From an uncultured Chloroflexia bacterium (lineage in GTDB: Bacteria > Chloroflexota > Limnocylindria > Limnocylindrales > CSP1-4): a stretch of 64,000 nucleotides of DNA. The notes beneath the pieces were generated by a model. That model made no database searches. It worked only from the letters and a program-made list of their open reading frames with translations, and was not told the DNA's origin. Both the position numbers and the translations under genes were made by a program. The stretch is from NCBI GenBank assembly GCA_963713795.1, contig CAVQNC010000010.1, positions 103,966-167,965 on the forward strand, given 5' to 3'. Positions 8,767 through 56,359 of the stretch are shown here, piece by piece; position 1 is the first letter of the stretch; every line of letters begins with the position of its first letter.

Positions 8767-10032
8767 ATGACTTCGATCGGCGGCCTGCGCTCCCTCGGCG
8801 CGACACTGCGCCGCCCTGCCCTCGGCCGCTGGCTTCGCGTGGTGGGCCCGGCCTGGGTGGTGATGCTGGCGGACGTGGACGCACCCAGCGTCATCACGGC
8901 GGCCAAGGGCGGAACCGAGTCCGGCTACGCCCTGCTCCTGCCTTGCTTCGCCGTGGTGCCGGTGCTGTTCGTCGTGCAGGAGATGACGGCGCGCCTGGCG
9001 CTGGCAACCGGGATGGGCCACGCCGAGCTCGTGCGGGCGCGCTACGGGCGCCGCTGGGCCGCGGTCTCCGTCCTGGGCATGGCCGTCATCAACTTCGTGG
9101 CCTACGTGGCCGAGTTCGCCGGCATCGCTCTCGGGGCCTCGATCGTCGGCATCCCGCCGGCCCTCGCGATCGTCGGGGCGCTCGCCGTCCATGCTTCGAT
9201 GGTTCTCTCCGGCAGCTACTCCCGCTTCGAGCGGCTGGCGCTGGTGCTGTCGCTGGCCCTGTTCAGCTTCGTAGTCCTCGCCGTAGCCGGCCGTCCCGAT
9301 CTGGGGCATCTGGCGTCGGACCTGAGCCCTCTGCCGGGCGACGTTCCACACGACTACTTCGCCCTCGTCGTGGCGATAATCGGCGCCTCGATCATGCCGT
9401 GGATGCTCTTCTACCAGCAGTCGGCCAGTGTCGATAAGAAGCTCACGCGCGAGGACCTGCGCGGGTCTCGGGTCGAGACGCTGCTGGGGGCGCTGGCCAG
9501 CCAGGCGTTGATGGCCGCGATCGTGATTGCCGCCGCCGCCGCAATGCAGTCCGCGGCGCCTGTAGCGGCCACGACCCGTAACCTGGCCGACCTGCCCGAG
9601 GGCCTGGCCCGCCTCGCCGCCGGCGGGGCCGGCTGGCTCATCGCCGTCGGGCTCGTCGGCTCCGGCCTGCTGGCGCTGGTCGTGATCTCGCTTTCGGCCG
9701 CCTGGGGCATCGGAGAGCTCATGGGCTGGCCCCGCAGTCTCAACCTCAAGGTCGGCCAGGCCCGGCGCTTCTACGGCGTCTACTTCGTCGAAGTCATCCC
9801 GGCCGCCGCGGTGGCGCTCGCCTCGGCCGACCTCGTGCGCGTCTGTGTCGGGGCGATGGTCTTCAACGTGGTCATTCTGGCCCTGCCTCTGGCGTTCCTG
9901 GTCAGGCTTACGAGCGACCGCGCCCTCCTCGGCGACCTTGCCAACTCCCGCCCGCAGGCGACCGTGCTGTGGCTCGTCGTTGCCGGGCTGCTGGCCGCGG
10001 GCGTCTTCGGGATGATCCAGTACCTCGCTTAG
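8767..10032 (+). CDS. mntH: NRAMP-family divalent metal (Mn2+/Fe2+) transporter
   Basis: 421-aa polytopic protein. N-terminal segment GPAWVVMLADVDAPSVITAAKGGTESGYALL matches the NRAMP DPGN-type region. Confidence 0.7.
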   Translation: MTSIGGLRSLGATLRRPALGRWLRVVGPAWVVMLADVDAPSVITAAKGGTESGYALLLPCFAVVPVLFVVQEMTARLALATGMGHAELVRARYGRRWAAVSVLGMAVINFVAYVAEFAGIALGASIVGIPPALAIVGALAVHASMVLSGSYSRFERLALVLSLALFSFVVLAVAGRPDLGHLASDLSPLPGDVPHDYFALVVAIIGASIMPWMLFYQQSASVDKKLTREDLRGSRVETLLGALASQALMAAIVIAAAAAMQSAAPVAATTRNLADLPEGLARLAAGGAGWLIAVGLVGSGLLALVVISLSAAWGIGELMGWPRSLNLKVGQARRFYGVYFVEVIPAAAVALASADLVRVCVGAMVFNVVILALPLAFLVRLTSDRALLGDLANSRPQATVLWLVVAGLLAAGVFGMIQYLA

Positions 10033-10303
10033 AGCCCGGTCCGGCCGCCGGAAGAGCCCGGCCCGTCGCGGGAAGAGCCGGGCCGATTCTCGGGATGGCG
10101 CCCTGTGGGCCGACCACGGGTTTCCGTCCGGGCCCCGCGCCCGTCGCCAGGGGATGAGAACCACTTGCGCGACGAGGCCGATCTGGGCGACACTAGCCCG
10201 TGCTCCACGACCGCTGGACCGGAGGCGGGTACCGGCTCGGGAGCCCAAGGTTCGCTGCCGGGGGTCGCCCCTACGGCGCGACTGCGGAAGGCCGGGATCG
10301 CCA

Positions 10304-11676
10304 TGGTTCGCACCCGCGTTGTGATCATGGGAGCCGCTGGGCGCGACTTCCACAACTTCAACGTCGTCTATCGGGACGACCAGGCCGTGGAGGTCGTTGC
10401 TTTCACGGCCGCCACGCAGATCCCAGGCATCGCGGGGCGCCGATACCCGGCCGAGCTGGCCGGGCCGCTCTACCCCGACGGCATCCAGATCGTGGCCGAA
10501 TCCGACCTCGAGCGCCTGCTGGTCGCCGAACGGGTCGACCTCGTGGTGTTCGCCTACAGCGACGTGGCTCACGAGCACGTGATGCACACGGCCAGCAGGG
10601 CGCTGGCGGGCGGCGCCGACTTCGAGCTGCTTGGGCCGGCCCACACGATGCTGCCCAGCACCAAGCCGGTGGTCGCCACCGGCGCCACGCGAACCGGCGC
10701 CGGCAAGAGCCAGACCACTCGCTACATCGCGGCGTTGCTCGAGAAGCAGGGCCTGCGGGTCGTCGTGGTCCGCCATCCCATGCCGTACGGCGACCTCGTG
10801 GCCCAGCGGGTGCAGCGGTATGCCACGTACGCGGACCTGGATCGCTACGACACCACGATCGAGGAGCGCGAGGAATACGAGCCGCATCTCGACGCCGGCC
10901 GAGTCCTCTACGCCGGGGTCGACTACGCGGCGATCCTGCGCCAGGCCGAAGCCGAAGCCGACGTCGTCCTCTGGGACGGCGGCAACAACGACTTCCCGTT
11001 CTACCGGCCGGATCTCTTCGTCGCGGTTGCCGATCCGCTCAGGGCCGGCCACGAGATGCATTACCACCCCGGCGAGACCAACATCCGCCTGGCCGACGTC
11101 GTCGTGATCAACAAGGTGGACTCGGCCACGCCCGCGCAGGTGGCCGAGGTGCGAGCGAACGTGAACTCGATGAATCCCCGGGCGCGAGTCGTTCTGGCCC
11201 GGTCGACCCTGACCCTGCAGGGCGGTGAGATCGCCGGCAAGCGGGTGGCGGTCGTCGAGGACGGCCCTACGCTCACGCACGGCGGCATGACCTACGGTGC
11301 CGGCGTTGTCGCGGCGCGGCGGTTCGGGGCGGCCGAACTCGTGGACCCGGTGCCTTTCGCGGTCGGCCAGCTGGCCGAGACGCTGGGCCGCTATCCGGCA
11401 CTGGAGCACCTGATCCCGGCCATGGGCTACGGCCAGGGCCAGATGCACGAGCTGGAGACCACGCTCAACGCGATGCCGGTCGACCTGGTGCTCTCGGCCA
11501 CGCCGATCGACCTGACGCGGGTCCTCAAACTGGACAAGCCGGTCGTGCGCGTCCGCTACGAGCTCGAGGAGCTCGCCGGAGACGAGCCCGGACACGGCGA
11601 ATCGAACCTGACCCAACTTCTCGCCCCAATCGTCGAGCGGGCCCGGGCCGGCCTGCGCGCGGAGACAAGCCGCTAG
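10304..11676 (+). CDS. cpgS-like (cyclic 2,3-diphosphoglycerate synthetase homologue) P-loop protein, function unknown in bacteria
   Basis: ATG at 10304 preceded by GGAAGG. 457 aa, matching archaeal cpgS length. Walker A TGATRTGAGKSQTT. The N-terminal 66 residues of the track ORF (from 10105) look non-coding. The stop lies 12 nt before the OTC start. Confidence 0.55.
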
Positions 11677-11687
11677 CCGGAGGGACT

Positions 11688-12632
11688 GTGATGACGCGCC
11701 ACCTTCTGACTTTGGATTCCCTCGGGCGCGAAGGGATCCTGGTCAACCTCGACATGGCCGGCCGACTCAAGAGCGCCAGGGGGATGGCGCGGGAGGCGCT
11801 CCCGGGCGGGCGGCTGGGCCTCATCTTCGACAAGCCGTCGACGCGGACGCGGGTCAGTTTCGAGGCCGCGGCCTGGGGCCTCGGCATGCTGCCGATCACG
11901 CTCCGACCCGATGAACTGCAGCTGGGGCGGGGCGAGACGATCGCCGACACGGCGCGGGTCCTGTCCCGCTACCTGACGGCGCTCGCGATTCGGACGTTCG
12001 ACCAGGCGAGGGTCGAGGAGCTGGCTCGCTACGCCACGATCCCGATCATCAACGCCCTGACCGACGACCATCATCCGTGCCAGGCCCTGGCGGACGTCAT
12101 GACCCTGCGGGAGGAGTTCGGCGAGCTGAAGGGGCTCCGGGTGGCCTTTATCGGCGACGGCAACAACGTCTGCAACTCTCTGATCCAGGCGGCCGGCTAC
12201 CTGGGTTTCACCATGGCCATATCAACGCCTGAGGGCTACGAGTCGAACGCCGCCGTCGTCGAGGCGGCCACGGCGAATTGCCGCGTCAACGGCGGTGCGA
12301 TCGAGCTCGGACATGACGTTCGGGCGGCCGCGCGCGGCGCCGACGCCGTCTACACGGACGTCTGGGCGAGCATGGGGCAGGAGAAGGAACGCGAGGAGCG
12401 AGCCCGGGTCTTTGCCGGGTACTGCGTGACTCCCGAGCTGATGGGTCTGGCGGCGCCGCGGGCGATATTCCTGCACTGCCTGCCGGCCCATCGCGGCGAT
12501 GAGGTACTCGACGAGGTGATCGACGGCCCCTGGTCACGGGTCTGGAACGAGGCCGAGAACCGCTGGTACACCGAGCAGGCGCTGCTCTACAAGCTCATCA
12601 CCGGCGAGGAACACCCGGAGCGCGTGGGATGA
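11688..12632 (+). CDS. arcB: Ornithine carbamoyltransferase
   Basis: STRTR carbamoyl-phosphate motif, HCLP motif, DxxxSMG (DVWASMGQE). 314 aa. Confidence 0.85.
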   Translation: MMTRHLLTLDSLGREGILVNLDMAGRLKSARGMAREALPGGRLGLIFDKPSTRTRVSFEAAAWGLGMLPITLRPDELQLGRGETIADTARVLSRYLTALAIRTFDQARVEELARYATIPIINALTDDHHPCQALADVMTLREEFGELKGLRVAFIGDGNNVCNSLIQAAGYLGFTMAISTPEGYESNAAVVEAATANCRVNGGAIELGHDVRAAARGADAVYTDVWASMGQEKEREERARVFAGYCVTPELMGLAAPRAIFLHCLPAHRGDEVLDEVIDGPWSRVWNEAENRWYTEQALLYKLITGEEHPERVG

Positions 12633-13597
12633 CCCGGCTGGCCATCGCCCTCGGCGGCAACGCGCTGATAAGGCGGGGCGAGCCGGGCTCCACGGAGGTC
12701 CAGCGCCGCAACCTGGTGGCTGCGGCGCGCGGCCTCGTCACGCTGGCCGAGGGCAGCCGGGCCGAGATCGTCGTCACCCACGGAAATGGACCGCAGGTCG
12801 GATTCCTGGCCATCGGAGCGGAGATGGCCGCCTCGGTGGTGCCGGCGCCGCCGCTCGACGTGCTCGGCGCGGAGACGCAGGGTCAGATCGGCTACCTGCT
12901 GGCACAGGCCCTCAACGATGCCTTCCTCGAGCGCGGCCGCAGGCGGGAGATGGCCGTCATCGTGACGCGGACGGTCGTCCCGGCCGACGATCCGGCCTTC
13001 GCCAACCCGTCCAAGCCCGTCGGGCCGGTTTACGACGAAGCCACGGCCCGAGAGCACGCGGCATCGCGCGGTTGGACGGTTGCCCCGGACGGCAAGAACT
13101 GGCGGCGCGTCGTGCCGTCGCCGCCGCCGATCCGGATCGTCGAGGCGGCCGCCATCCGCTCCCTGGTCGACGCCGGGATCCTGGTCGTGGCCTCCGGGGG
13201 TGGGGGAGTGCCCGTGGTCGAGCTGCCCGACGGCCGCCTGGAGGGCGTGGAAGCGGTCATCGACAAGGATCTCGCGGCGGTCGTGCTGGCGAGGTCCGTC
13301 GACGCGGATGGGCTGCTGCTGCTGAGCGACGTCGACGCGGTCTACCGGCGCTGGGGCACGCCGCGGCAGGAGCCGATCCTGCGGCTTTCCGTCGAGGAGG
13401 CGAGGGAGGGGCTTGCCGCCGGCTTCTGGCCTTCGGGCTCGATGGCGCCGAAGGTTCGAGCCTGCGCCGAGTTCGTCGCCGGCGGAGGTAGATTCGCCGC
13501 AATCGGCGCACTGGAGAACGCCGTGGCCATCGTCAAGGGCAGCTCCGGCACCTGGTTCGGCGCCGAGTCGACGGGCCTGCCGCGCCGGGCCGCCTGA
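12629..13597 (+). CDS. arcC: Carbamate kinase
   Basis: N-terminal AIALGGNAL motif of the amino-acid-kinase family. 322 aa. ATGA overlap with the OTC gene. Confidence 0.8.
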   Translation: MTRLAIALGGNALIRRGEPGSTEVQRRNLVAAARGLVTLAEGSRAEIVVTHGNGPQVGFLAIGAEMAASVVPAPPLDVLGAETQGQIGYLLAQALNDAFLERGRRREMAVIVTRTVVPADDPAFANPSKPVGPVYDEATAREHAASRGWTVAPDGKNWRRVVPSPPPIRIVEAAAIRSLVDAGILVVASGGGGVPVVELPDGRLEGVEAVIDKDLAAVVLARSVDADGLLLLSDVDAVYRRWGTPRQEPILRLSVEEAREGLAAGFWPSGSMAPKVRACAEFVAGGGRFAAIGALENAVAIVKGSSGTWFGAESTGLPRRAA

Positions 13598-13634
13598 GGC
13601 CGCCGGCTGCCTTGCATGAGACGGAGGAACTCGG

Positions 13635-14393
13635 ATGGAGCGACCTGATTTCGACCTGTCCGGACAGGTGGCGCTGGTCACCGGCGCCGGGAGAGGGATC
13701 GGCCGCGACCTCGGGCGGGCGCTGGCGGCCTGCGGCGCCCACGTCCTTGCCGGCGTGCGCGACCCGGGCGCTGCCGGCGTCGCCTGGACGGCACCGGCGG
13801 GGGGCAGCGTTGAGCCCGTCGGCATCGACGTGACGGACGTCGCCGGGACGCGCGCCGCCGTGGACGCGGCCGTTCGGGCCCACGACCGGATAGACATCCT
13901 GGTCAACAACGCCGGGCTCGGAGCGAACCACGACGCCCTCGACGTGAGCGAGTCCGACTGGGACGAGATGATGGCCGTCAACCTCAAGGGCCTCTTCTTC
14001 ACGAGCCAGGCCGTCGGCCGGCACATGGTCGAGCGAGGTTACGGCCGCATCGTCAACATCAGCTCCCAGGCCGGGCTCGTCGGCATCCGCCGCCATGCCG
14101 TCTATTCCGCGAGCAAGGGCGGCGTGAACCTGCTGACCAAGGTCCTGGCGCTCGAGTGGGCGCCGTTCGGCGTCACGGTCAACGCCATAGCCCCGACCTG
14201 GATCTACACGCCCGGGACGGCGGAGCGCCTCGACGACCCGGCCTTCCTGGCCGGCGTCCTGGCCAGGATTCCCGTCGGTCGGGTCGGAACCACCGACGAC
14301 GTCGCGGCCGCGGTCGTCTTCCTCTCGTCCCGTGCCGCCGGCCTGGTGACGGGTGCCGTCCTGCCGGTCGACGGCGGCTGGACGGCCCAGTAG
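13635..14393 (+). CDS. SDR-family oxidoreductase (3-oxoacyl-ACP reductase-like)
   Basis: TGAGRGIG Rossmann motif and catalytic YSASK; 252 aa; 38 nt after the carbamate kinase gene. Confidence 0.8.
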   Translation: MERPDFDLSGQVALVTGAGRGIGRDLGRALAACGAHVLAGVRDPGAAGVAWTAPAGGSVEPVGIDVTDVAGTRAAVDAAVRAHDRIDILVNNAGLGANHDALDVSESDWDEMMAVNLKGLFFTSQAVGRHMVERGYGRIVNISSQAGLVGIRRHAVYSASKGGVNLLTKVLALEWAPFGVTVNAIAPTWIYTPGTAERLDDPAFLAGVLARIPVGRVGTTDDVAAAVVFLSSRAAGLVTGAVLPVDGGWTAQ

Positions 14394-14518
14394 GGGACGG
14401 CGTGGACGCGGCCGCGTGATACCACTTCCGGCGGCCGCCGCCACGCCGCCCCATACCACTCGGCCGGCCGCCACGCCGCCCCATGCCACTCGGCCGGGAC
14501 GAGCCCGCCCGCCGGCGT

Positions 14519-30127: not shown

Positions 30128-30836
30128 AACACCTCTCTCGGGCGAGCGAGTCGTGCCTGCCGGCGCGGGCGCGGCATCTGCCGGCGGTACCGCAGGCACG
30201 TCCGGGCGGTTGTCGCTGCCCATAGGGATCATCTCGAGGCCGCGCCTGGCGAGCCACGAACTGATGAACTCAGCCAGGGCCCGGTCGTCGTTGGCCAGAA
30301 CGGTGCGTGCCCTGTGTCGTGGGCGGCGAAGCCGCTCGTCCGTGCGACCACCTCACCTTTCAGCCGAGGAGCCGGCTCGTTGACCTGCCTTGAATGGTGC
30401 TTGCCCCACCCCATTACGTCAACCCCGGAGTCGGCCGGCGGACCGCGCAGCCGAGACGTGGCTCTCCCTAGTCGAGCGGGAGTCACATCCGGCCGCGAGG
30501 CCGGCAGGGGCGCGCTTTCGCGGGGCGGCTGTGCCCCAAGTGTTTTGAGAATGATTTGAGATTTGCGGCGGGTTGTCGGGAATAGAGTTCGGTCACAAGC
30601 GCCCGGGCCCACGCACTGGTAGGAGAAGTGGGTCACCCCAGGAGAGGAGGTATGGTCGCGGTACCTGGTAGCGGCGTGCGCCTGGCAGGCCGCACTCGGG
30701 TACTCGCACGGGGACCGGCTTCGGCATAGCTGGGTTCGCGACGCCGAGATTTACCAAACCATCGAATTCCGAATCCCATCTGGCGGATCCGCTACCCCGG
30801 TGGATTTCGCCGATGGGGCGCCAGGGAGATTTGAGA

Positions 30837-31601
30837 ATGGTCGAGAAAATGGTTGCCGAGATCTTCGGCACGGCGATTCTGGTCCTTCTGGGCGACGGCG
30901 TTGTAGCGGGTGTCCTGCTCTCGAAGTCGAAGGCCCAGAACTCGGGCTGGATCGTCATAACCATGGCATGGGCATTCGCCGTCTTCATGGGCGTGTGCGT
31001 GGCCGGACCGCTCAGCGGCGCCCACCTTAACCCGGCCGTGACGATCGGCCTTGCCACCTACGGGTCGCTCCAGTCGGGCGCCGGCATCACCTGGGACCAG
31101 GTCCCGCCGTACATTGCCGGTGAGATGATCGGTGCCATGATCGGCGCGATCCTTGTGGTCATCCACTACTGGGATCACTTCAAGGCCACCGAGGACAAGG
31201 GCCTCAAGCTGGCGGTCTTCAGCACGGCCCCGAACATCCGCAACCTGCCGCTCAACCTGGTCTCGGAGATCATCGGCACCTTCGTGCTCGTCTTCGTGAT
31301 CCTCTGCTTCGGCCAGCCCGGTTCCAAGGCCCCGGCGACCATGGGCGCGCTGCCCGTCGCCCTGCTGGTCCTGGTCATCGGCCTCTCGCTCGGCGGTACG
31401 ACCGGATATGCGATCAACCCCGCCCGCGACCTCGGCCCGCGCATCATCCACGCCATCCTGCCAATTCCTGGCAAGGGCGGTTCGGACTGGGAGTACTCGT
31501 GGGTTCCCGTCGTCGGTCCGCTGATCGGCGGCGCAATCGCGGCCATCGTCTACTACGCGGCCTTCACCCAGTTCATCGTCCTCAAGATTCCGGTTTCGTA
31601 A
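30837..31601 (+). CDS. glpF: Glycerol uptake facilitator (MIP/aquaporin family)
   Basis: Two NPA boxes (HLNPAVTIG and AINPARDLGPR); six TM helices; ATG 8 nt after AGGGAG. Confidence 0.9.
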   Translation: MVEKMVAEIFGTAILVLLGDGVVAGVLLSKSKAQNSGWIVITMAWAFAVFMGVCVAGPLSGAHLNPAVTIGLATYGSLQSGAGITWDQVPPYIAGEMIGAMIGAILVVIHYWDHFKATEDKGLKLAVFSTAPNIRNLPLNLVSEIIGTFVLVFVILCFGQPGSKAPATMGALPVALLVLVIGLSLGGTTGYAINPARDLGPRIIHAILPIPGKGGSDWEYSWVPVVGPLIGGAIAAIVYYAAFTQFIVLKIPVS

Positions 31602-31716
31602 GCGGTCGTTTCAAGTTGAGCCGCCGGTTCGAGGCAACTCGGGCCGGCGGCTCGCCCTGCCGAACCGACCTGAACCGACCTGAACTGTCGGATCCAGGAG
31701 TCGCGGAGGAAGTCGA

Positions 31717-32715
31717 ATGAAGAAGCTCATCAACGCGCCGGACCGCGTCGTGGACGAGGCGCTGGCCGGCATGGCAGCGGCTCACCCGGATCTGATCCGG
31801 GTCGAGGAGCCAAACATCATCGTCCGAAAGGATGCCCCCAAGCGCGGCAAGGTCGGCATCATCTCCGGCGGCGGGTCGGGCCACGAACCCATGCACGGCG
31901 GCTTTGTCGGCATGGGCATGCTCGATGCCGCCTGCCCGGGCGCTGTGTTCACGTCACCGGTTCCGGATCAGATGCAGGCCGCCACCAGGGCGGTCAACGG
32001 CGGCGCCGGTGTGCTGCACATCGTCAAGAACTACACGGGCGATATCATGAACTTCGACCTCGCGGCTCAACTGACCGAGGCCGAAGGGATCCCGGTGAAG
32101 GCGGTCGTCATCGCCGACGACGTAGCCGTAAAGGACTCGCTCTACACCGCTGGCCGGCGCGGTGTCGGCGGGACGGTGCTCGCCGAGAAGATCGTCGGCG
32201 GCGCGGCCGAGGCCGGCGCCGATCTGGACAAGGTGACGGCCTTGTGCCAGAGGGTCCAGGACAATGTCCGTTCCATGGGCATGGCCCTGACCAGTTGCAC
32301 CGTCCCGGCGGCGGGCAAGCCCACCTTCGAGCTCGCCGACGACGAGATGGAGATCGGCATCGGCATTCACGGCGAGCCTGGCCGGACCAGGATGAAGCTC
32401 GCCCCAGCGGACGACATCGTCGAAATGCTGATGGTGCCGATCCTCGAAGACCTTCCGTTCAAGTCGGGTGACAAGGTGCTCGCCTTCGTCAACGGCATGG
32501 GCGGAACGCCGCTTATCGAGTTGTACGTCGTGTACAACGCGGTCAACAAGATCCTCAAGGGCCGTGGGATCACGATCGCACGGAACCTCGTCGGGAGTTA
32601 CATCACGTCCCTGGAGATGGCCGGCTGCTCTATCAGCTTGCTCAGGCTCGACGACGAGATGACCCGCTTCTGGGATGCCCCGGTCCATACGCCGGGTCTT
32701 CGCTGGGGCGTGTGA
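31717..32715 (+). CDS. dhaK: Dihydroxyacetone kinase subunit DhaK (copy 1)
   Basis: GGGSGHEP motif and DhaK fold; ATG after GGAGGAAG. Confidence 0.9.
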
Positions 32716-33365
32716 CGTCGATGGACCAAACCGGCCGGTTGTCGTTCGATGATGTCCGTGGCTGGATCCGGCGCTTCGCGGCGCAGATCGTCGCCAACAA
32801 GAAGTACCTGACCGAGCTCGACTCGGCCATCGGCGACGCCGACCACGGCATCAACATGGATCGCGGCTTCCAGGCTGCGATTCCGAAGCTAGATGCCCTT
32901 ACGGGCGAGGATCCCGGCGCAGCCTGCAAGCTCGTCGGGTCGACGCTCATCTCCACGGTCGGCGGAGCCGGCGGGCCCCTCTACGGCTCGCTCTTCCTCC
33001 AGTTCGGCATCGCCTTGTCCGGCCACGACACGATCAGCCTGAACGAATGGCTGACCGGATTCGACCTGGGCATCGCTGCGATCCAGCGGCTTGGAAAGGC
33101 CGAGGCCGGCGACAAAACGATGCTCGATGCCCTCATGCCCGCCCGCGACGCCCTCAAACAGGCTCTCGCCGATGGAAAGAGTCCCAGAGAGGCTCTCCTC
33201 GGCGCGGCCTCGGCGGCCGAGGCGGGGATGATAGGCACCATCCCGATCGTGGCCCGCAGGGGCCGGGCGAGCTACCTGGGAGAGCGCAGCGCGGGCCATC
33301 AGGACCCGGGCGCGACCTCCTCGTACATGCTCGTCAAAGCCGCAGCGGACGAATGGGCGGCCTAG
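32712..33365 (+). CDS. dhaL: Dihydroxyacetone kinase subunit DhaL (copy 1)
   Basis: DGDHGINM ADP-binding motif; 4-nt overlap with dhaK. Confidence 0.85.
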
Positions 33366-33375
33366 ATCCGCGGTA

Positions 33376-34905
33376 GTGGATTCCGGTTTATCGAAAGAGG
33401 TGACTAGATTGGCTCAGTATGTAGGCGCCCTGGACCAGGGGACTACAAGCACCCGCTTCATGATCTTCGATCACTCCGGCGGCGTCGTCGGGATCGATCA
33501 GAAGGAGCATGAGCAGATCTACCCGAAGCCGGGTTGGGTCGAGCACGATCCGCTGGAGATCTGGACGCGCAGCGTCGAGGTCATCCGCGGCGCCCTGGCC
33601 AAGGCCGGCATCAAGGCCTCCGACCTGGCGGCGGTCGGCATCACCAACCAGCGCGAGACCACGGTGGTCTGGGATCGCAAGACGGGCAAGCCCGTCTACA
33701 ACGCGATCGTCTGGCAGGACACCCGGACCGACGTGATCATCAACGAGTTCGCCAAGGACGGCGGCCAGGATCGGCTCCGCGCCAAGGTCGGCCTGCCTCT
33801 GGCGACCTACTTCTCCGGCCCGAAGATCAAGTGGATCCTCGACAACGTCGCGGGTGCCCGTGCCAAGGCCGACGCCGGAGACCTCCTCTTCGGCAACATC
33901 GACACCTGGTGCATCTGGAACCTGACCGGCGGCGTCAGCGGCGGCGTGCACGTCACGGACGTGAGCAACGCCAGCCGCACGATGCTGATGAACCTCGAGA
34001 CCCTGGACTGGGATCCCGAGATTCTCAAGCTCATGGGCATCCCGCGGTCCATGCTGCCGGCCATCAAGGCCTCCAGCGAGGTCTACGGCAAGGGCGTCGG
34101 CGACCTCGCCGGCGTTCCGGTGGCCGGTGACCTGGGTGACCAGCAGGCGGCCCTCTTCGGCCAGACGTGCTTCTCCGCCGGCGAGGCGAAGAACACCTAC
34201 GGCACGGGCTGCTTCATGCTCCTGAACACGGGCACCAAGGCGGTCCCGTCCAAGAGCGGCCTGCTGACCACGCTCGGATACAAGATCGGCGACCAGCCCG
34301 CGGTCTACGCCCTTGAAGGCTCGATCGCGATCACCGGCGCCCTGGTCCAGTGGCTGCGCGACAACCTTGGCATGATCAAGACCTCGCCCGAGATCGAAGA
34401 GCTTGCCAAGACGGTCGACGACAATGGCGGCGTGTACTTCGTGCCGGCCTTCTCCGGCCTGTTCGCGCCGTACTGGAAGAGCGATGCGCGCGGCGTCATC
34501 GCCGGATTGACTCGCTACGTCAACAAGGGCCACATCGCCCGAGCAGTGCTCGAGGCGACGGCCTGGCAGACCCGCGAAGTGCTCGACGCGATGAACTCCG
34601 ACTCCGGCGTTCCGCTAACCGCACTCAAGGTCGACGGCGGCATGGTCTTCAACGACCTGCTCATGCAGTTCCAGGCCGACGTCCTGGGCGTGCCGGTCAT
34701 CCGGCCGAAGGTCGCAGAGACGACCGCCCTGGGCGCCGCCTACGCTGCCGGCCTCGCGGTCGGCTTCTGGAAGGCCGTCGAGGACCTGCGGGCGAACTGG
34801 CAGAAGGATCACGAGTGGAAGCCCAAGATGGATGCCACCACTCGTGAGAAGGACCTCAAGCTCTGGAAGAAGGCCGTGACCCGGACCTTCGACTGGGTCG
34901 AGTAG
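33376..34905 (+). CDS. glpK: Glycerol kinase
   Basis: [17 protein letters not shown]-terminal motif, FGGY-family length. The true start may be the TTG at about 33409 (LAQYVGAL). Confidence 0.9.
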
Positions 34906-34917
34906 GGTCTCCACCAA

Positions 34918-34946
34918 TCCGGCGGCCGGCTTGCCCGGCCGCCGGA
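34918..34946 (+). terminator. Perfect 12-bp stem hairpin (TCCGGCGGCCGG-cttgc-CCGGCCGCCGGA) between glpK and the glpA-like gene
   Basis: Read directly from the sequence. No U-tract; may act as a terminator/attenuator or RNA processing site. Confidence 0.4.
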
Positions 34947-34979
34947 TAACAATGTTCGAACATCGCATCTGGCAGAACA

Positions 34980-36167
34980 ATGGATAGACAGTCAGGCGCA
35001 CCAAGGGTCGTCATCATCGGCGGCGGTGGCACGGGGGGAGCCCTCGCCCACGATCTGACTCTGCGCGGGGTCCGCGTGACCCTCGTCGAGCGCGGCGAAA
35101 TCACTTCGGGGACGACGGGCCGGCACCACGGCCTGCTCCACTGCGGCGCCCGGTACGCGGTCAAGGACCGCGAGTCCGCCGTTGAGTGCATTGAAGAGAA
35201 CACCATCCTGCGGAGGATCGCGCCGGGCTCGTTCGAGCTCAACGACGGGCTCTTCGTCGCGGTCACCGATGCCGAGGCGGATTACGAGAAGGTCTTCTTC
35301 GAGTCGTGCCAGGCCGCCGAGATTCCCGTCAGGAGAGTGGACCGGGCCGGGGCGCTGCGCCTCGAGCCCAGGCTGAACCCGGAGCTCCGGTGCGCCGTCC
35401 AGGTCCCCGACGGCACCATGGACGCGATGCGCATGCCGCTCCGGTTCTTCGCCACCGCCAAGCGCAACGGCGCCGATATCCGGCCGTTCAGCGAGGTCGT
35501 CGGGCTGACCATGACGGACGCGGCGTCGCCGCGCGCGGTCACCGGGGTGGCCGTGAAGGACCTCACGTCCGGCCGCACGTACGAGATCGGCGCGGACCTG
35601 GTGGTCAACGCGGGCGGGCCGTGGGCGGGCAAGGTGGCCGGAATGGCCGGTGTGGACGTGCCGATCCAGCCCTCGCCGGGGATCCTGGTCGCGGTCCGCG
35701 GCCGCTACTGCAACATGGTCGTCAACCGGCTCCACGCCTCCGGCGACGGCGACATCGTGGTGCCCCAGCGCGAGCTCTCAGTGATCGGAACGAGCTCGTG
35801 GGTCACCGACGATCCGGACCACCTGACCGTCCCATCCGACCACGTGGAGATGATGTTCCGCGAGGGATCGATGATGATCCCGTCGATCCGCACGGCCGAG
35901 ATTCGGGCGACCTGGTCCGCCGCCCGGCCGCTCATCGGCGAGCGCGGCGCCTCCACCGGCCGCGAGCTTTCGCGCACTTTCAAATGCTTCGACCACGCGG
36001 CCGACGACGGCGTCGAGGGCTTCGTGACCATCTCGGGAGGCAAGGCGACGACGCTGCGGGCGATGGCGGAGGCGACGGCCAACGTCGTGTGCCGCAAGCT
36101 CGGCGTCGACCGGCCGTGCATGACCCGCGAGGTCGTGCTGCTGCCCCACACGGAGTACTACGCATGA
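34980..36167 (+). CDS. glpA: Glycerol-3-phosphate dehydrogenase flavoprotein, GlpA-type but truncated (about 395 aa, lacks the C-terminal BFD-like domain)
   Basis: N-terminus VVIIGGGGTGGALAHDLTLRGVRVTLVERGEITSGTTGRHHGLLHCGARYAVKDRESAVECIEEN is collinear with the E. coli GlpA N-terminus as recalled. Confidence 0.8.
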   Translation: MDRQSGAPRVVIIGGGGTGGALAHDLTLRGVRVTLVERGEITSGTTGRHHGLLHCGARYAVKDRESAVECIEENTILRRIAPGSFELNDGLFVAVTDAEADYEKVFFESCQAAEIPVRRVDRAGALRLEPRLNPELRCAVQVPDGTMDAMRMPLRFFATAKRNGADIRPFSEVVGLTMTDAASPRAVTGVAVKDLTSGRTYEIGADLVVNAGGPWAGKVAGMAGVDVPIQPSPGILVAVRGRYCNMVVNRLHASGDGDIVVPQRELSVIGTSSWVTDDPDHLTVPSDHVEMMFREGSMMIPSIRTAEIRATWSAARPLIGERGASTGRELSRTFKCFDHAADDGVEGFVTISGGKATTLRAMAEATANVVCRKLGVDRPCMTREVVLLPHTEYYA

Positions 36168-36955
36168 GCGCCCAGGAGTCTCCGGTGACCGAAGGGGCTC
36201 AGGCCCCCGTCGATACCCACGCCACCTCGGGAACCGGCCGCCACGTCCGCTTCCGCGTCTCCCGTTTCAAGCAGGGCGACCAGCAGCCGCACCTCCAGGA
36301 CTACGACGTGGAGATTGCGCCGGCGACCACGGTCCTGGACGCCCTGACGGCGATCCGCCGCGACCAGGACCCGACGCTGCTCCTGCGCCATTCCTGCTTC
36401 CACGCGTCCTGCGGCACCTGCGGCATGCGCGTCAACGACAAGGAAGAGCTGGCCTGCGTCACGGCCGTCAGCGACCTCGACTGCGACACGGTCAAGGTGG
36501 AGCCGATCGCGAACCAGCGACTCGTTTCGGACCTGGTCACGGACATGGTCGACTTCTACGATCGGTTCCGGGCGATCGGCCGGCCGCTCATCCGCCAGAG
36601 TGAGGTCTACCCGGACTCGGAGGTCGCGCCGGGAGTCGAGGAGCACCGCCGCTACGAGAGCTGCATCGAATGCGGGCTCTGCCTGTCGGCCTGCCCGATC
36701 GTAGCCAGCGACGGCCGCTACCTCGGCCCGGCGGCGCTCGCGGCGGCCCAGCGTACCGTCGCCGAGCCGCGCGGTGGCGACAGCTTCTCCGTCCTGCGCC
36801 TGACCGACGACGCCCAGGCGGCCTGGCGCTGCCACCTGTCGTTCGAGTGCTCGGAGGCCTGCCCGTCCAACGTGGATCCGGCCGGCGCCATCATGTTCAT
36901 CCGCCGCAAGCTGGCAGGCCAGCGCGTCAACTCGATCTTCGGGAGGCGGTCATGA
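36164..36955 (+). CDS. Succinate dehydrogenase/fumarate reductase-type iron-sulfur subunit (SdhB-like: 2Fe-2S plus two 4Fe-4S-type motifs)
   Basis: ATGA overlap with the glpA stop. CFHASCGTCGMRVN...C plant-ferredoxin motif; CIECGLCLSACP; CHLSFECSEACP. The 5' 286 codons of track ORF 35306..36955 are a frame artefact. Confidence 0.75.
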   Translation: MSAQESPVTEGAQAPVDTHATSGTGRHVRFRVSRFKQGDQQPHLQDYDVEIAPATTVLDALTAIRRDQDPTLLLRHSCFHASCGTCGMRVNDKEELACVTAVSDLDCDTVKVEPIANQRLVSDLVTDMVDFYDRFRAIGRPLIRQSEVYPDSEVAPGVEEHRRYESCIECGLCLSACPIVASDGRYLGPAALAAAQRTVAEPRGGDSFSVLRLTDDAQAAWRCHLSFECSEACPSNVDPAGAIMFIRRKLAGQRVNSIFGRRS

Positions 36956-37353
36956 CCGTAAGGGAAGATAGGGCAAGCCCCCGGCGCCGCGGCGTCTACG
37001 GCTGGGTCGACCCGCGGGGTCGCCGGCTGGGTCACTGGGCCTTCATCCTCAACCGCCTGACCGGTCTGGGCATCCTTCTGTACCTGGGCCTGCATCTGGT
37101 CGTGCTGTCGATGCTGGCCACCGGCCCGAATGCCTGGGACAACTTCGTCTCCCTCGCCCTGACGCCCGTCTTCCTGTCCCTGGACGTGATCCTGATCTTC
37201 GGCCTGCTGCTCCACGGGCTCAACGGCATCCGCGTGACGCTTGTCGGCTTCGGCCTGGTGGTCGATCGCCAGAAGGCCCTCTTCGTGTCGCTGATGGTGA
37301 TAGGAGCCATCATCCTGGTCGTGGCGTCGCTCCACATTTTCGAGGTGGGGTAA
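36952..37353 (+). CDS. SdhC-like membrane anchor/cytochrome b subunit
   Basis: ATGA overlap with the FeS gene; 133 aa, three TM helices with His residues (HWAF, LHLV, LLHGLNG). Confidence 0.65.
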   Translation: MTVREDRASPRRRGVYGWVDPRGRRLGHWAFILNRLTGLGILLYLGLHLVVLSMLATGPNAWDNFVSLALTPVFLSLDVILIFGLLLHGLNGIRVTLVGFGLVVDRQKALFVSLMVIGAIILVVASLHIFEVG

Positions 37354-37356
37354 GCG

Positions 37357-37791
37357 ATGTCTGAGCCAATCTCCGGCCACTCCAAAGCGACCGATCAGCC
37401 GGTCGATCACGATGTCGAGCGCTCGACCTGGACGCCTTCGAACGAGTCCGGGAAGCCGGCCTGGGGCTGGATCCTGCAGGCGGTCACCGGCGTGCTGGTG
37501 CTGTTCCTTCTGACCTTCCACATGATCGCCAACCATTTCATGGTGACCAAGGGCCTGCGCGACGCCGCCTCCGTGGCCCAGTGGTTCTCGAACCCGCTCG
37601 TCGTCGTCCTGGAGGTAACCTTTCTGGTGATGGTGACGTGGCACGGGCTGCTCGGCCTGCGCGCGATCATCTTCGACTTCGGCTTCAGCCCGAAGACGGA
37701 GCGCCGGATTACCTGGACCCTGACAGTGGTTGGCACAGTGGCGGTCGTCTATGGAATCTGGCTTACGTCGGTGATCGTCTCCCGGGGTTGA
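37357..37791 (+). CDS. SdhD-like hydrophobic membrane anchor subunit
   Basis: 144 aa, three TM helices (FHMIANHFMV, WHGLLGLRAI); follows the SdhC-like gene after 3 nt. Confidence 0.6.
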   Translation: MSEPISGHSKATDQPVDHDVERSTWTPSNESGKPAWGWILQAVTGVLVLFLLTFHMIANHFMVTKGLRDAASVAQWFSNPLVVVLEVTFLVMVTWHGLLGLRAIIFDFGFSPKTERRITWTLTVVGTVAVVYGIWLTSVIVSRG

Positions 37792-37812
37792 TCCTGCGAC
37801 TGGAGGCGTGGC

Positions 37813-40425
37813 GTGGCGGATGCGACCGGGCCGCTGGTAGGGATAGTCGTCGTCTCACACTCGGCGCGGATCGCCGAGGGTGTCGTCGAGCTGGCCCGGC
37901 AGATGGCCGGCCCGGACGTGCCTCTCGTTGCCGCCGGAGGCATGGCCGACGGCGCCATCGGAACCGATGCGGTTCTCATAGCGGAGGCGATCGCCCGGGC
38001 CGACGTTGGTGGCGGCGTGCTCGTTCTGGCCGACCTCGGCAGCGCGGTCCTGAGCACGAAACTGGCCCTGGACATGGCCGATCCGGAACTGGCCGCCCGG
38101 ACTCGCCTGAGCAACGGGCCGATCGTCGAAGGCGCGGTCGTGGCCGCGGTCCGAGCCAGGGGCGGCGCGACGGTCGACGAGGTTCTGCGCGAGGCGGAGG
38201 CCGCTGCCTCGGTGGTCAAGGACTCTGGTGACGAGGCTGCCGACGTCTTCGGTGCGGCCGGCCCCGGGCCGAGCCTGGCGGCCGGAGCGGCCGGGACGAG
38301 CGGCGGCGTGGCCGGTGCGGCCGGCGGGCCCAGCACGTTCACCCTCGAGGTCTCGAACCCGTCCGGCCTGCATGCCCGGCCGGCGGCGGAGTTCGTCGCC
38401 ACCGCCGCACGGTTCCGATCCGCGATCCGGCTCGAGAACCTGACTCGGGGCACGTCACCGGCCGACGCCAGGAGCCCGACGGCGATCATGTCGAGCGGAG
38501 TGGCCCAGGGCCACGCGATCCGCGTGTCGGCTGAGGGAGAGGACCAGGACGCGGCGCTTGCGGCGCTCCTGTCGCTCGCCGCTGGCGGCTTCGGCGAGGG
38601 CAAGGCGGCCGCCACCCGACCCGGGCCGGCCGCGGCTCGGCCGGCGGCCGAATTGCCGCTCCTGGCGCCCCGCCCGCGCCTGGCCGGGGCCATCGCCGGG
38701 ACGCCGGGCGCAGCCGGCGTGGCCGTCGGGCCGGTGTGGGTCTACGCCTCGCGGCCGCCGTCCGATGCCGCCGCTCACGGGGCCGGGGCGACTTACGATC
38801 CCGGCGCGGCAGTCCGTTCGGCGGCCGCCGAAGCCACCGCCCAGCTCAACGCGCTGGCGGCACGGGTGCGGCGGCATGGTCGAGACGAGGACGCCGGCAT
38901 CTTCCGAGCCCAGGCCATGATTGCCTCCGACCCGCAGCTCCTGGACGATGCCGTGGCGCGGGCGGCCGCGGGCGAGGACCCGGGCAGGGCCGTGGAGTCG
39001 GCCGCGGCGATGGCCGCGGAACGCATGGAGGCCCTGCCGGACGCGCTCCTGGCGGCCCGTGGGGCCGACTTCCGCGACGTGGGGGCCAGGATCGCCCGGA
39101 TCGTTCGAGGTGAGTCGCTGACCCTGCCGGCCGTGCCTTCCATCGCGGTCGCCGAGGACCTGCCGCCCTCCGTCGCGGAGGAGCTGCCGGAAGATCTCCT
39201 GCTCGGAGTGGCGATCCAGGGCGGCTCGGCCACGGCGCACGTCGTAATCCTGTCCCGCGGCCGGGGGATCCCGGCCGTAGTGGCGGTGCCCGGACTCCTC
39301 GAAGCGGCGGCGAAGGCGTCGGCCATCGCCATCGACGGCGAGTCGGGCGAAGTGGTCCTCGATCCGGACGCGGCCGCGCTGGCCGAGCTGGCGGCTCGCG
39401 CCGAGGCCTTGGCCGAGCGCCGCCGCGCCGCGGCCGCGCTTCGCGGCGACAAGGGAGCCACTGCCGACGGGCAGCCCGTTGCGCTGCTGGCGAACATCGG
39501 CGGCCCTGATGATGCCGGCCGCGCCATCGAAGCCGGAGCCGAGGGCGTGGGCCTGTTTCGAACCGAGTTCCTGTTCATGAAGCGCCGGACGGCTCCGACC
39601 GAGGACGACCAGGTCGAGCCGTATCGGCGCGTCTTCGAAGCCTTCGGGCGCGATCGCCCGGTCGTCGTCCGCCTGGCGGACATCGGCGGCGACAAGGACC
39701 TGCCTTACCTGGGCTTGCCGCACGAGGAGAACCCGTTCCTCGGAGTCCGGGCGATCCGCCTGGCCGAGGGTTCGCGCGAGCTGCTCGCCGCCCAGCTGCG
39801 GGCGATCTGGCGGGCCGCCGGGCTGGCCGGCGTGGTGCCGCACGTCATGGCGCCGATGGTCTCCACGCTGGAGGACGCCCGTCTCCTGGTCGAGCTGCGC
39901 GACGAAGCCCGGGCGGTGGTGGCGGCCGGGGGCGCGCCCCTGCCCGAGCGCATGGTCACCGGAATCATGGTCGAGGTCCCGTCCGCGGCGATCCTGGCTC
40001 CGGAGCTCGCGCGGCTGGTCGATTTCTTCTCGATCGGCACGAACGACCTGACCCAGTACACGCTGGCGGCGGATCGCTCGAACCCGGCTCTGGCCCACTT
40101 CCAGGATGCCCTCCATCCCGCTGTTCTACGCCTCATCGCCGGCGTGGTCGCCGGGGCCGACGAGGCCGGCATCCCGGTCGCGGTCTGCGGGGAACTGGCC
40201 GGCGATCCGATCGGGGCCCTCGTGCTGGTCGGCCTGGGTGTCGACGAACTCTCCGCGGACGCCGGCTCGCTCGATGACGTGCGGGCGGCGCTCGCGGGCG
40301 TGACGCGCGCTCAGCTGGCCGATCTTGCGCAGGACGCCCTCAAGGCGGCCGATGCCGCGGCGGTCAGGGCCATGGCCCGCGAGCTCCTGCGGCCGCTCGC
40401 AGCGGGGCCCGGGCGCACGCCGTGA
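37813..40425 (+). CDS. dhaM: Multiphosphoryl transfer protein: DhaM-type EIIA(Man)-like domain, HPr domain and full Enzyme I (PEP-protein phosphotransferase)
   Basis: N-terminus VGIVVVSHSARIAEGVVELARQM matches the DhaM N-terminus. HPr GLHARPAAEFV. EI phospho-His region GGSATAHVVILSRGRGIPAVV and PEP-utilizing signature FFSIGTNDLTQYTLA. 870 aa. Confidence 0.85.
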   Translation: MADATGPLVGIVVVSHSARIAEGVVELARQMAGPDVPLVAAGGMADGAIGTDAVLIAEAIARADVGGGVLVLADLGSAVLSTKLALDMADPELAARTRLSNGPIVEGAVVAAVRARGGATVDEVLREAEAAASVVKDSGDEAADVFGAAGPGPSLAAGAAGTSGGVAGAAGGPSTFTLEVSNPSGLHARPAAEFVATAARFRSAIRLENLTRGTSPADARSPTAIMSSGVAQGHAIRVSAEGEDQDAALAALLSLAAGGFGEGKAAATRPGPAAARPAAELPLLAPRPRLAGAIAGTPGAAGVAVGPVWVYASRPPSDAAAHGAGATYDPGAAVRSAAAEATAQLNALAARVRRHGRDEDAGIFRAQAMIASDPQLLDDAVARAAAGEDPGRAVESAAAMAAERMEALPDALLAARGADFRDVGARIARIVRGESLTLPAVPSIAVAEDLPPSVAEELPEDLLLGVAIQGGSATAHVVILSRGRGIPAVVAVPGLLEAAAKASAIAIDGESGEVVLDPDAAALAELAARAEALAERRRAAAALRGDKGATADGQPVALLANIGGPDDAGRAIEAGAEGVGLFRTEFLFMKRRTAPTEDDQVEPYRRVFEAFGRDRPVVVRLADIGGDKDLPYLGLPHEENPFLGVRAIRLAEGSRELLAAQLRAIWRAAGLAGVVPHVMAPMVSTLEDARLLVELRDEARAVVAAGGAPLPERMVTGIMVEVPSAAILAPELARLVDFFSIGTNDLTQYTLAADRSNPALAHFQDALHPAVLRLIAGVVAGADEAGIPVAVCGELAGDPIGALVLVGLGVDELSADAGSLDDVRAALAGVTRAQLADLAQDALKAADAAAVRAMARELLRPLAAGPGRTP

Positions 40426-41432
40426 GAATGGCGAGCCTGGGCAGGTCCGGCCTCCCCGTCAGCGAGATCGGGCTGGGCCTGGCCGCGATCGGCCGGCCGG
40501 GCTATATCAACCTCGGACGCGACCGCGACCTCGGCGCCGATCGCAGCGTCGAGGTCATGCGGAGCAGAGCCCACCACGTGCTCGACGCCGCCTACGCCGG
40601 CGGCGTGCGTTACTTCGACGCCGCGCGCTCGTACGGCCTGGCCGAGGACTTCCTGGCCTCGTGGCTGGACGCACGCGCCCTCGGGCCCGCCGACGTGACC
40701 GTGGGCTCCAAGTGGGGCTACCGCTACACGGCCGACTGGCAGGTCGGGGCGAGCGTCAACGAGATCAAGGACCACTCCGTCGCGAACCTGCGGCGCCAGG
40801 CGGCCGAGAGCCGCGGGCTGCTGGGAGACCGGCTGCGCCTCTACCAGATCCACTCCGCCACTCTCGAGAGCGGCGTGCTCGACGACGCCGAGGTGCTGGC
40901 CGAGCTGAGCTCGCTGGCCGGGGCCGGCCTGGCGGTCGGGCTGTCGGTGAGCGGTCCGCGGCAGTCGGACGTGATCCGTCGCGCGCTCGAGGTCCGGGTC
41001 GACGGCCGCCCGCTCTTTGCCTCCGTCCAGGCGACCTGGAACCTGCTCGAGCCGTCGGCCGGACCCGCGCTGGCCGAGGCCAGGGAGGCGGGCTGGGGAG
41101 TGATCGTCAAGGAAGCGCTGGCGAACGGCCGCCTGGCCACGCCGGCGGCGCCGGCGGCCCTCGCGGCGCCGGGTTCGCCGGGCCGGCCCGCTCCGCTCGA
41201 GAACGTGGCCGGGCGCCTCCGCTGCGCCGCCGACGCCGTGTCCATCGCCGCCGCGCTGGCTCAGCCGTGGTCCGACGTAGTCCTGTCGGGAGCGGTCAGC
41301 CCTGAACAGCTCACCAGCAACCTTGCCGCGGTCGACGTGCGGATCTCGCCCGACGACCTGGCCGAACTCGGGTCCATGGCCGAGCCGCCGGCATCGTACT
41401 GGGCGACGCGAGCCTCGCTGGCCTGGGCCTGA
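40422..41432 (+). CDS. Aldo/keto reductase
   Basis: 336 aa; AKR (alpha/beta)8 barrel features; ATGA overlap with the dhaM fusion gene. Confidence 0.7.
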   Translation: MRMASLGRSGLPVSEIGLGLAAIGRPGYINLGRDRDLGADRSVEVMRSRAHHVLDAAYAGGVRYFDAARSYGLAEDFLASWLDARALGPADVTVGSKWGYRYTADWQVGASVNEIKDHSVANLRRQAAESRGLLGDRLRLYQIHSATLESGVLDDAEVLAELSSLAGAGLAVGLSVSGPRQSDVIRRALEVRVDGRPLFASVQATWNLLEPSAGPALAEAREAGWGVIVKEALANGRLATPAAPAALAAPGSPGRPAPLENVAGRLRCAADAVSIAAALAQPWSDVVLSGAVSPEQLTSNLAAVDVRISPDDLAELGSMAEPPASYWATRASLAWA

Positions 41433-41459
41433 CTGCCCAGGGACTCCCGGCACGGAGAG

Positions 41460-41710
41460 GGTGAGGGCGGCCGCGCCGCCCGCCCGCGCGGCCCCGCGCC
41501 GCCCGCCCGCGCGGCCCCGCGCCGCCCGCGCGCCGAGTCGGCCGCCTGCGTCCTTCGCCGCCTGCCTGCACCCCGCGTCGCCCACCGCGAGCTGTGCAGC
41601 CGCCCGCGACCTGTGCCGCCCGCGCGCCGCCCAGCGTGTCGCGCCCGCCCCGAGCTGTCCCGCCCCGAGCTGTCCCGCTCGCGCCCGAGCTGTCCCGCCC
41701 GCCCTGAGCC
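41460..41710. repeat. GC-rich degenerate tandem repeats in an intergenic region (23-nt unit GCCGCCCGCCCGCGCGGCCCCGC x2 plus partial copy; 14-15-nt unit CCCGAGCTGTCCCGC x3)
   Basis: Read directly from the sequence between the AKR stop and the SorC-family regulator start. Confidence 0.6.
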
Positions 41711-41841
41711 GATTCCTCTTGGGGATCGACGACAACTCATGACCCGCACCGTGAATCAGCCGGCTCCGGCGGGACCCGCTCTGGTAACATTGGGCACACG
41801 CTCACCACTGAGCAAATGATCGGGCCGCCTGGGGTTGGCAG

Positions 41842-42906: not shown

Positions 42907-43016
42907 ACAGCCGCGGAGCGGTGGCGTAACCAGTTCGGCCGCGAGCCCGGAGGGCTCTGGCCGATGGCCGGAGTAGGCGTAAGCCGGACAGCGAAGCGTC
43001 CCAAGGAGGTGCTGGA

Positions 43017-44641: not shown

Positions 44642-44683
44642 CTCCGCCCGGCAACCCACCGAAGCAAGGAGAAGGAGGTCCAT

Positions 44684-56206: not shown

Positions 56207-56359
56207 TCGTCCGTTCCCTTTCCATGACTGGACCTGGTACCGCACGAAACAGTCGGTTGCCGCCGCTCCGCGTGAGTCGATGGCAATCGGCTCAACTCCG
56301 CCCCGCCAGATCATATCCAGGCTTGACCGCACGCGAACGCTCGGCCATCGTGAGACCCC

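Follow-up and report, generated by a model that had tools for sequence, protein, structure and literature searches.

A probable arcE-arcB-arcC operon of the arginine synthetase pathway, preceded by a conserved leader, in an uncultured Chloroflexota bacterium

The arginine synthetase ArcE was described in 2024 in the hyperthermophilic archaeon Thermococcus kodakarensis by Michimori, Yokooji and Atomi in PNAS (PMC11032458), and a follow-up has since appeared (PMC13260591). The enzyme, TK2200, interconverts arginine, ADP and inorganic phosphate with citrulline, ammonia and ATP; the reaction is reversible, with an equilibrium constant of about 10 at 80 °C, ADP is the preferred nucleotide (GDP at 8 %), and among the six guanidino compounds assayed the enzyme was specific for L-arginine (PMC11032458). 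The family had been annotated as "predicted GTPase", and Hyperthermus and Pyrodictium are among the genera listed as ArcE holders (PMC11032458). In this work, we analyzed a stretch of 64,000 nucleotides (hereafter the window, whose own coordinates are used throughout) of contig CAVQNC010000010.1 from an uncultured Chloroflexia bacterium (assembly GCA_963713795.1, positions 103,966 to 167,965 of the forward strand), in which a gene for a P-loop protein precedes genes for an ornithine carbamoyltransferase (OTC) and a carbamate kinase (CK), with no recognizable arginine deiminase (ADI) gene. The window has a G+C content of about 69 %, and the nearest proteins come from metagenome-assembled genomes of "Candidatus Limnocylindrales" (Chloroflexota). 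The puzzle posed by this combination of genes is already answered by the 2024 discovery: we propose that the three genes constitute an arcE-arcB-arcC operon of the "arginine synthetase pathway", with a bacterial ArcE orthologue and coupled arcB and arcC, and assign a probability of about 0.8 to this reading.

The ArcE orthologue and its partners

The gene designated arcE (10303 to 11676, plus strand; ATG at 10303, TAG at 11674-11676) encodes a protein of 457 residues. T. kodakarensis carries a separate gene, TK1039, annotated as a cyclic 2,3-diphosphoglycerate synthetase (cDPGS), so a direct test of orthology to TK2200 was needed. Searching for TK2200 by name, we found no Thermococcus label in cluster look-ups or in homology searches with archaeal queries. 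The primers for both of its ends are printed in the 2026 follow-up (PMC13260591), and they give the protein termini as MAEKKKKRVLI... and ...KNCEKLKK. A fragmentary database protein (P0259) that ends in KNCEKFKK led to cytosine-free contigs, a composition that fits T. kodakarensis libraries converted from C to T by a bisulfite-type treatment. In one of these contigs (L083, 2842 nt: A 693, C 0, G 771, T 1378) the TK2200 primers, after the same C-to-T conversion, match exactly at positions 17 and 1335, with an open reading frame (ORF) of 448 codons between them. The window protein aligns with the raw translation of this ORF over residues 3-425 at 39 % identity (blastp, E 3.5e-120); at the 184 conversion-proof codons the identity is 57 %, with an upper bound of 61 % when every T in the contig is allowed as an original C. 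The window protein therefore matches the recovered TK2200 over its full length at 57-61 % identity and is an ArcE orthologue on this comparison. As a side observation, contigs from which cytosine is missing or all but missing recur in the Logan assemblies (L083-L086; SRR252062xx/SRR252063xx), and gene calling on such converted contigs has left corrupted pseudo-proteins in the collection, in which A appears as V, H as Y, P as L or F, and Q as a stop.

The window ArcE comprises a Rossmann-like N-terminal domain and an LpxK/cDPGS-like P-loop domain. Its AlphaFold model, built with 44 homologues and of high confidence (predicted local distance difference test score, pLDDT, 92.3; predicted template-modelling score, pTM, 0.91), has the fold expected of the ArcE family, that is, a P-loop NTPase that is LpxK-like and of low similarity to cDPGS. 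The Walker A motif GATRTGAGKS lies at 10681-10710 (residues 127-136; the family shows little or no variation at R130, T131, G132, G134 and K135), and a Walker-B-like strand and loop, VVLWDGGNND, at 10963-10992 (residues 221-230) is the most conserved motif of the family. An earlier first-pass annotation of this stretch had given the length of the protein and the string TGATRTGAGKS (residues 126-136) correctly and had set the start one nucleotide late, at 10304.

Relatives were collected with an alignment of nine sequences, and two peptide patterns, one of them [LIV]WDGGNN[DE], retrieved 587. The family comprises 3556 clusters (50 % identity, E <= 1e-3), is 57-82 % identical across phyla and domains, and shares the motifs GAAGRDFHNFN, RTGxGKS, RHPMPYG, EEREEYEP, WDGGNND, INKxD and EDGPTLTHGG; all residues that are nearly invariant in the family alignment are kept in the window ArcE. 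Members occur in Hyperthermus and Pyrodictium, and the family bears the same "predicted GTPase" label reported for ArcE (in JGI annotations; NCBI uses "GTPase" or "cyclic 2,3-diphosphoglycerate synthase"). In Pfam, the protein matched only positions 113-179 of the 180-position cobW profile, at 25 bits; NCBIfam offered just partial matches of the ZigA/HypB type (16-20 against cut-offs of 121-600), and version 20.0 of that library holds no model for the ArcE family. A literature search under "COG2403" returned nothing, and an exact-sequence look-up of the window ArcE returned no record. Two further observations concern the family and its name: one homologue (P0263, 806 residues) carries an inserted intein that includes a homing-endonuclease domain of the LAGLIDADG type, and in Nanosynbacter TM7x the name arcE denotes an arginine transporter that is unrelated (PMC12815258).

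The two genes that follow arcE are on the same strand, and all junctions were checked on the sequence. The arcB gene (11691 to 12632, plus strand; 313 residues from the ATG) has a GGAGGG box 6 nt ahead of the ATG at 11691 and an alternative GTG start at 11688, which leaves 14 or 11 nt, respectively, after the arcE stop; the close adjacency had been recognized before, with a spacing of 12 nt that we correct here. The arcC gene (12629 to 13597, plus strand; 322 residues) starts within the ATGA that contains the arcB stop (12629-12632), an overlap already read in the first-pass annotation, and is through it translationally coupled to arcB. The identities that had been given to both products are confirmed by Pfam and NCBIfam models. 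The OTC scores 375 bits with TIGR00658 (cut-off 281) and 395 with NF001986 (cut-off 306), its translation contains the STRTR, HPCQ, SMG and HCLP motifs, and it fails the models of variant carbamoyltransferases (putrescine, 279 against 500; N-acetylornithine, 167 against 288; YgeW, 69-72 against 453-500). The CK exceeds the NF009008 cut-off (366 against 361) and, narrowly, that of TIGR00746 (359.3 against 358.25).

A scan of the whole 64-kb window against Pfam, comprising about 58 called and gap ORFs, detected no arginine deiminase or amidinotransferase, no ArcD-type antiporter and no ArgR, and none of argG, argH and carAB. It thereby agrees with the earlier view that this is not a classical arc operon: no called ORF of the window matches arcA in Pfam, and the same holds for the syntenic relatives L081 and L087-L089. 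Within the locus, then, arcE is found with arcB and arcC and without ADI, which is the context of an ArcE pathway.

This context was compared across 80 arcE-family genome loci, whose neighbourhoods were called with a homology-weighted choice of ORFs on account of shadow ORFs in DNA of high G+C content. In 20 of the 80 loci a gene for CK, for OTC or for each of them is found no more than 3.5 kb away in the same orientation, and 11 loci have both. The linkage occurs in Chloroflexota, Acidobacteriota, Aminicenantes, Actinomycetota, Myxococcota, Fidelibacterota and other phyla; the sample also takes in WOR-3, Bathyarchaeia and Heimdallarchaeota. The order arcE-arcB-arcC is kept in all four close relatives (L081 and L087-L089, ArcE identity 87-91 %) and in 25 metagenome loci. 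A fusion of CK (residues 1-313) to ArcE (residues 328-731) in a single protein of 766 residues (P0125, L082 134-2434) was sighted once, on a contig of high G+C content in one Logan assembly.

Direction, substrate and alternative readings

The window enzyme probably has the activity of TK2200, as its orthology, its retained residues and the operon context suggest. In the pathway proposed here, (i) ArcE would convert L-arginine, ADP and phosphate into L-citrulline, ammonia and ATP, (ii) ArcB would convert citrulline and phosphate into ornithine plus carbamoyl phosphate, and (iii) ArcC would use carbamoyl phosphate and ADP to form ATP and carbamate, the latter giving CO2 and ammonia. The sum would be two ATP per arginine versus one in the classical ADI pathway, which would make arcA dispensable; ArcE would conserve the energy of deimination as ATP. 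Only by analogy with three fold relatives, namely CTP synthase, dethiobiotin synthetase and cDPGS, do we infer that the P-loop domain may pass a phosphate back and forth between the nucleotide (ATP/ADP) and citrulline's ureido oxygen, giving an O-phospho-isourea in which the phosphate would then be swapped for ammonia. The substrate of the pathway is most likely arginine, on which the ArcE family acts, in place of the citrulline or other ureido compound suggested earlier; the P-loop protein, to which no role had been assigned, belongs to the family characterized in 2024 and takes the place of ADI. Since CK is co-translated with OTC, the operon probably runs in the catabolic direction.

Several points weigh against this interpretation. 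First, the sole characterized ArcE is a hyperthermophilic-archaeal enzyme, and none is bacterial. In addition, the identity to TK2200 is a range, 57-61 %, as the reference sequence was rebuilt from a C-to-T converted contig, and the second superfamily member of T. kodakarensis, TK1039 (annotated as cDPGS), stays outside the comparison. Besides, the absence of arcA covers 64 kb and not the genome, three quarters of the genome loci have no adjoining CK or OTC gene, and the ArcE reaction lies near equilibrium, so that the sequence is silent on its direction.

This last point bears on the alternative that survives best, namely that the same enzymes run anabolically, with CK forming carbamoyl phosphate, OTC forming citrulline, and ArcE forming arginine from it with ATP and ammonia, which would bypass carbamoyl-phosphate synthetase, ArgG and ArgH. 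ArcE indeed works in both directions and, with added citrulline, sustains the synthesis of arginine in vivo, and its authors proposed a biosynthetic role for bacteria without ArgG and ArgH (PMC11032458). Ten Anaerolineae loci (L026, L031, L034, L035, L038, L041, L064, L066, L067 and L078) also point in this direction: there, arcE follows the arginyl-tRNA synthetase gene by about 55 nt on the same strand, with neither OTC nor CK nearby and among the housekeeping genes NusB, Asp23, FabD/FabG, S20 and Obg, a context suggestive of a role in biosynthesis or in the supply of arginine there; the ten loci belong to one lineage and might represent only one event. The lack of argG, argH and carAB in the window would suit such a bypass as well, but over 64 kb it is uninformative on the genome. 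Against an anabolic operon stand the translational coupling of CK to OTC, a feature that marks out the catabolic arc layout, the catabolic pathway of T. kodakarensis, where arcC is dispensable for the supply of carbamoyl phosphate, and the millimolar Ks of ArcE for ammonia. We therefore regard anabolic operation as unlikely for this locus.

More improbable is that the ArcE-family enzyme of the window acts on another guanidino or ureido compound, the product of which would be handled by the short-chain dehydrogenase/reductase (SDR) encoded downstream. The bacterial members of the family are known by their sequences, and the SDR gene follows arcC in the same direction at 37 nt, both of which leave room for this proposal; however, the closeness of the protein to an enzyme that accepted L-arginine alone among six guanidino compounds, model scores that make its partner an ornithine and not a putrescine carbamoyltransferase, and the lack of the SDR in 19 of 20 related loci all speak for arginine.

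There is hardly any case for a G3E-type metallochaperone GTPase (CobW/HypB/UreG-like) that serves the Nramp-family transporter encoded upstream. The cobW match covers only the end of the profile, a protein that contains no cysteine cannot hold a CxCC metal site, TK2200 prefers ADP to GDP, and the Nramp-family neighbour is absent in L088 and in each of the 79 genome loci from outside Limnocylindrales; the missing cysteine, the partial domain and the contradicting ArcE orthology led us to reject this candidate.

Finally, a genuine cDPGS, to which the first-pass annotation had likened the protein, is effectively refuted, although cDPGS is the top structural match, NCBI gives this name to relatives, and the only match of a phmmer search against the PDB was a weak local one to a cDPGS (9sxb; E 2e-5, 27 bits, residues 215-322): the structural alignments have 15-16 % identity, the same search at E <= 1 did not return the Methanothermus fervidus enzyme (8ORK/8ORU), and the K145/R146 pair of the cDPGS P-loop GxGKRxGKT, which contacts 2,3-diphosphoglycerate, aligns with T131/G132 of GATRTGAGKS when anchored on GK[ST] and is thus not conserved. 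Moreover, the cyclic product has been reported only from hyperthermophilic methanogens, whereas the window protein is 57-61 % identical to ArcE and linked to CK and OTC. The likeness thus stands at the level of the fold and fails at the level of sequence, and the profile searches that had been recommended to settle it gave the partial cobW and weak 9sxb matches and no 8ORK.

The leader and the neighbouring genes

Upstream of arcE lies a candidate cis-regulatory region (10164 to 10302, plus strand), delimited by cross-locus alignments, that comprises two promoter-like conserved hexamers, CTTGCG (10164-10169) and ACACTA (10190-10195), and a conserved 5' leader of about 100 nt (10207-10302), the core of which begins at 10207 with ACGACCGCTGG and which ends in the ribosome-binding site GGAAGG. 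The roughly 140 nt ahead of arcE are nearly invariant in relatives, including those with a different upstream gene and one of 82 % identity (leader-bearing loci: L004, L081, L087-L089 and L091-L140), and single-nucleotide indels rule out a coding sequence there. A metagenome scan with a 22-mer of the core gave 53 loci, or 59 hits once earlier loci were added; in 47 of these 59 the core lies about 95 nt upstream of arcE, and the remainder are truncated contigs or chance matches in other genes (six chance matches). Six loci that had been found by protein similarity allowed conservation to be measured free of bias from the motif scan: identity was 87-95 % within the leader blocks, compared with 63 % for third codon positions and 35 % farther upstream, and one hairpin loop, which varies freely, came to 57 %.

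RNAalifold predicts two hairpins in the leader, most pairs of which are invariant; two pairs have double changes, so covariation is weak. The leader has no Rfam match at the gathering threshold or at E <= 10, a sigma-70 and terminator scan of it returned nothing, and its covariance model found no copy in 80 loci of other lineages. Taken together, these results mark the leader as a lineage-restricted, strongly constrained element and a candidate for cis-regulation of arcEBC. It is tempting to go further and see in it a new cis-regulatory RNA of this Limnocylindrales clade, which would control the arginine synthetase operon either as a riboswitch-type sensor (of arginine, a pathway product or the adenylate state) or as a target bound by an RNA-binding regulator, a proposal that we consider doubtful; anabolic operation of the operon is less likely still. 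Whatever its nature, the leader could reveal how the near-equilibrium, energy-conserving ArcE step is controlled.

Two further genes complete the series of five co-directional ORFs on the plus strand. The SDR gene (13635 to 14393, plus strand; ATG at 13635; 252 residues; Pfam adh_short) begins 37 nt after arcC, not the 38 nt given before, and its product is GolD/DthD-like and KduD-like while remaining below every NCBIfam cut-off. It is probably co-transcribed in the window. Downstream of arcC it is absent in all four syntenic relatives (L081, L087, L088 and L089), and among 20 leader-bearing metagenome loci with enough downstream sequence it is present in one, the nearest relative (L125, 94-99 % identity). 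Comparison of these loci thus marks the SDR gene as a recent lineage-specific insertion outside the conserved module; of the module first suggested, arcE-arcB-arcC is conserved and the SDR is not a member. The cluster is followed by two convergent ABC exporter genes, and the spacer between the SDR gene and the first of these holds a 30-nt tandem repeat (14432-14497, 2.2 copies, 94 % matches).

On the other side, 270 nt ahead of arcE, lies the gene of an NRMT-like Nramp-family transporter (8767 to 10032, plus strand; 421 residues; Pfam Nramp, 218 bits). The earlier assignment to a metal importer holds as regards the family and the position on the same strand, not as regards the canonical metal site: DAPS and MPW stand in place of DPGN in transmembrane helix 1 and MPH in helix 6, the MntH model gives 95 bits against a cut-off of 430, and among PDB entries the protein is closest to EleNRMT (7qia, E 1e-44), a Mg2+ transporter with DAGG and APW as the corresponding motifs. 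The protein is thus probably not an importer of Mn2+ or Fe2+, and the gene, which is not upstream of arcE in L088, probably lies outside the pathway.

Elsewhere in the window, an ORF of 750 residues on the minus strand (55064-57316) has an AsnA (aspartate-ammonia ligase) domain confined to residues 411-659, with no match in Pfam for the 400 residues at its N terminus. A large glycerol/dihydroxyacetone cluster (30813-46347) encodes an MIP channel, two DhaK/DhaL pairs, a glycerol kinase, an aldo-keto reductase, a SorC-type regulator, a class II aldolase, a fused EIIA-HPr-EI protein of 870 residues and an FAD-dependent oxidoreductase (Pfam DAO) that is possibly a glycerol-3-phosphate dehydrogenase.

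Comparison with known systems

The locus offers a clean, tightly coupled bacterial arcE-arcB-arcC operon from an abundant uncultured lineage of freshwater and soil. The public labels of the ArcE family, whether "cyclic 2,3-diphosphoglycerate synthase", "GTPase" or "predicted GTPase", are wrong or empty, and an arginine fermentation that yields two ATP is therefore invisible in the metabolic reconstructions of many phyla.

Among enzymes of related chemistry, the amidoligase domain of CTP synthase, dethiobiotin synthetase and cobyrinic acid a,c-diamide synthase are P-loop proteins of the SIMIBI class that phosphorylate a carbonyl or carboxyl oxygen; a sequence family relationship between them and ArcE is not detectable, and the likeness would be one of mechanistic analogy. 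The cDPGS (cpgS) of M. fervidus differs from the window protein in sequence and in the lysine-arginine pair of its P-loop, and also in its reaction, which is the cyclization of a phosphoanhydride, in the taxa that hold it and in its lack of a link to OTC or CK. The classical ADI pathway (arcA-arcB-arcC with arcD and ArgR/ArcR) shares OTC, CK and the products ornithine, CO2, two ammonia and ATP with the system proposed here. Its first step is hydrolytic, whereas the P-loop enzyme of the window would save a second ATP, and arcA, arcD and ArgR are not found in the window.

The closest system is that of ArcE/TK2200 itself. The window enzyme is known from its sequence alone and belongs to a mesophilic Chloroflexota host of high G+C content, TK2200 to a hyperthermophilic archaeon; the window genes form one tight operon headed by a conserved 5' leader, whereas TK2200, TK0871 and TK2158 are dispersed. 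The two systems nevertheless agree in the full-length homology of proteins of 457 and 448 residues, in their fold relatives LpxK and cDPGS, and in the partnership of ArcE with OTC and CK without arcA, which for the bacterial locus applies to the window.

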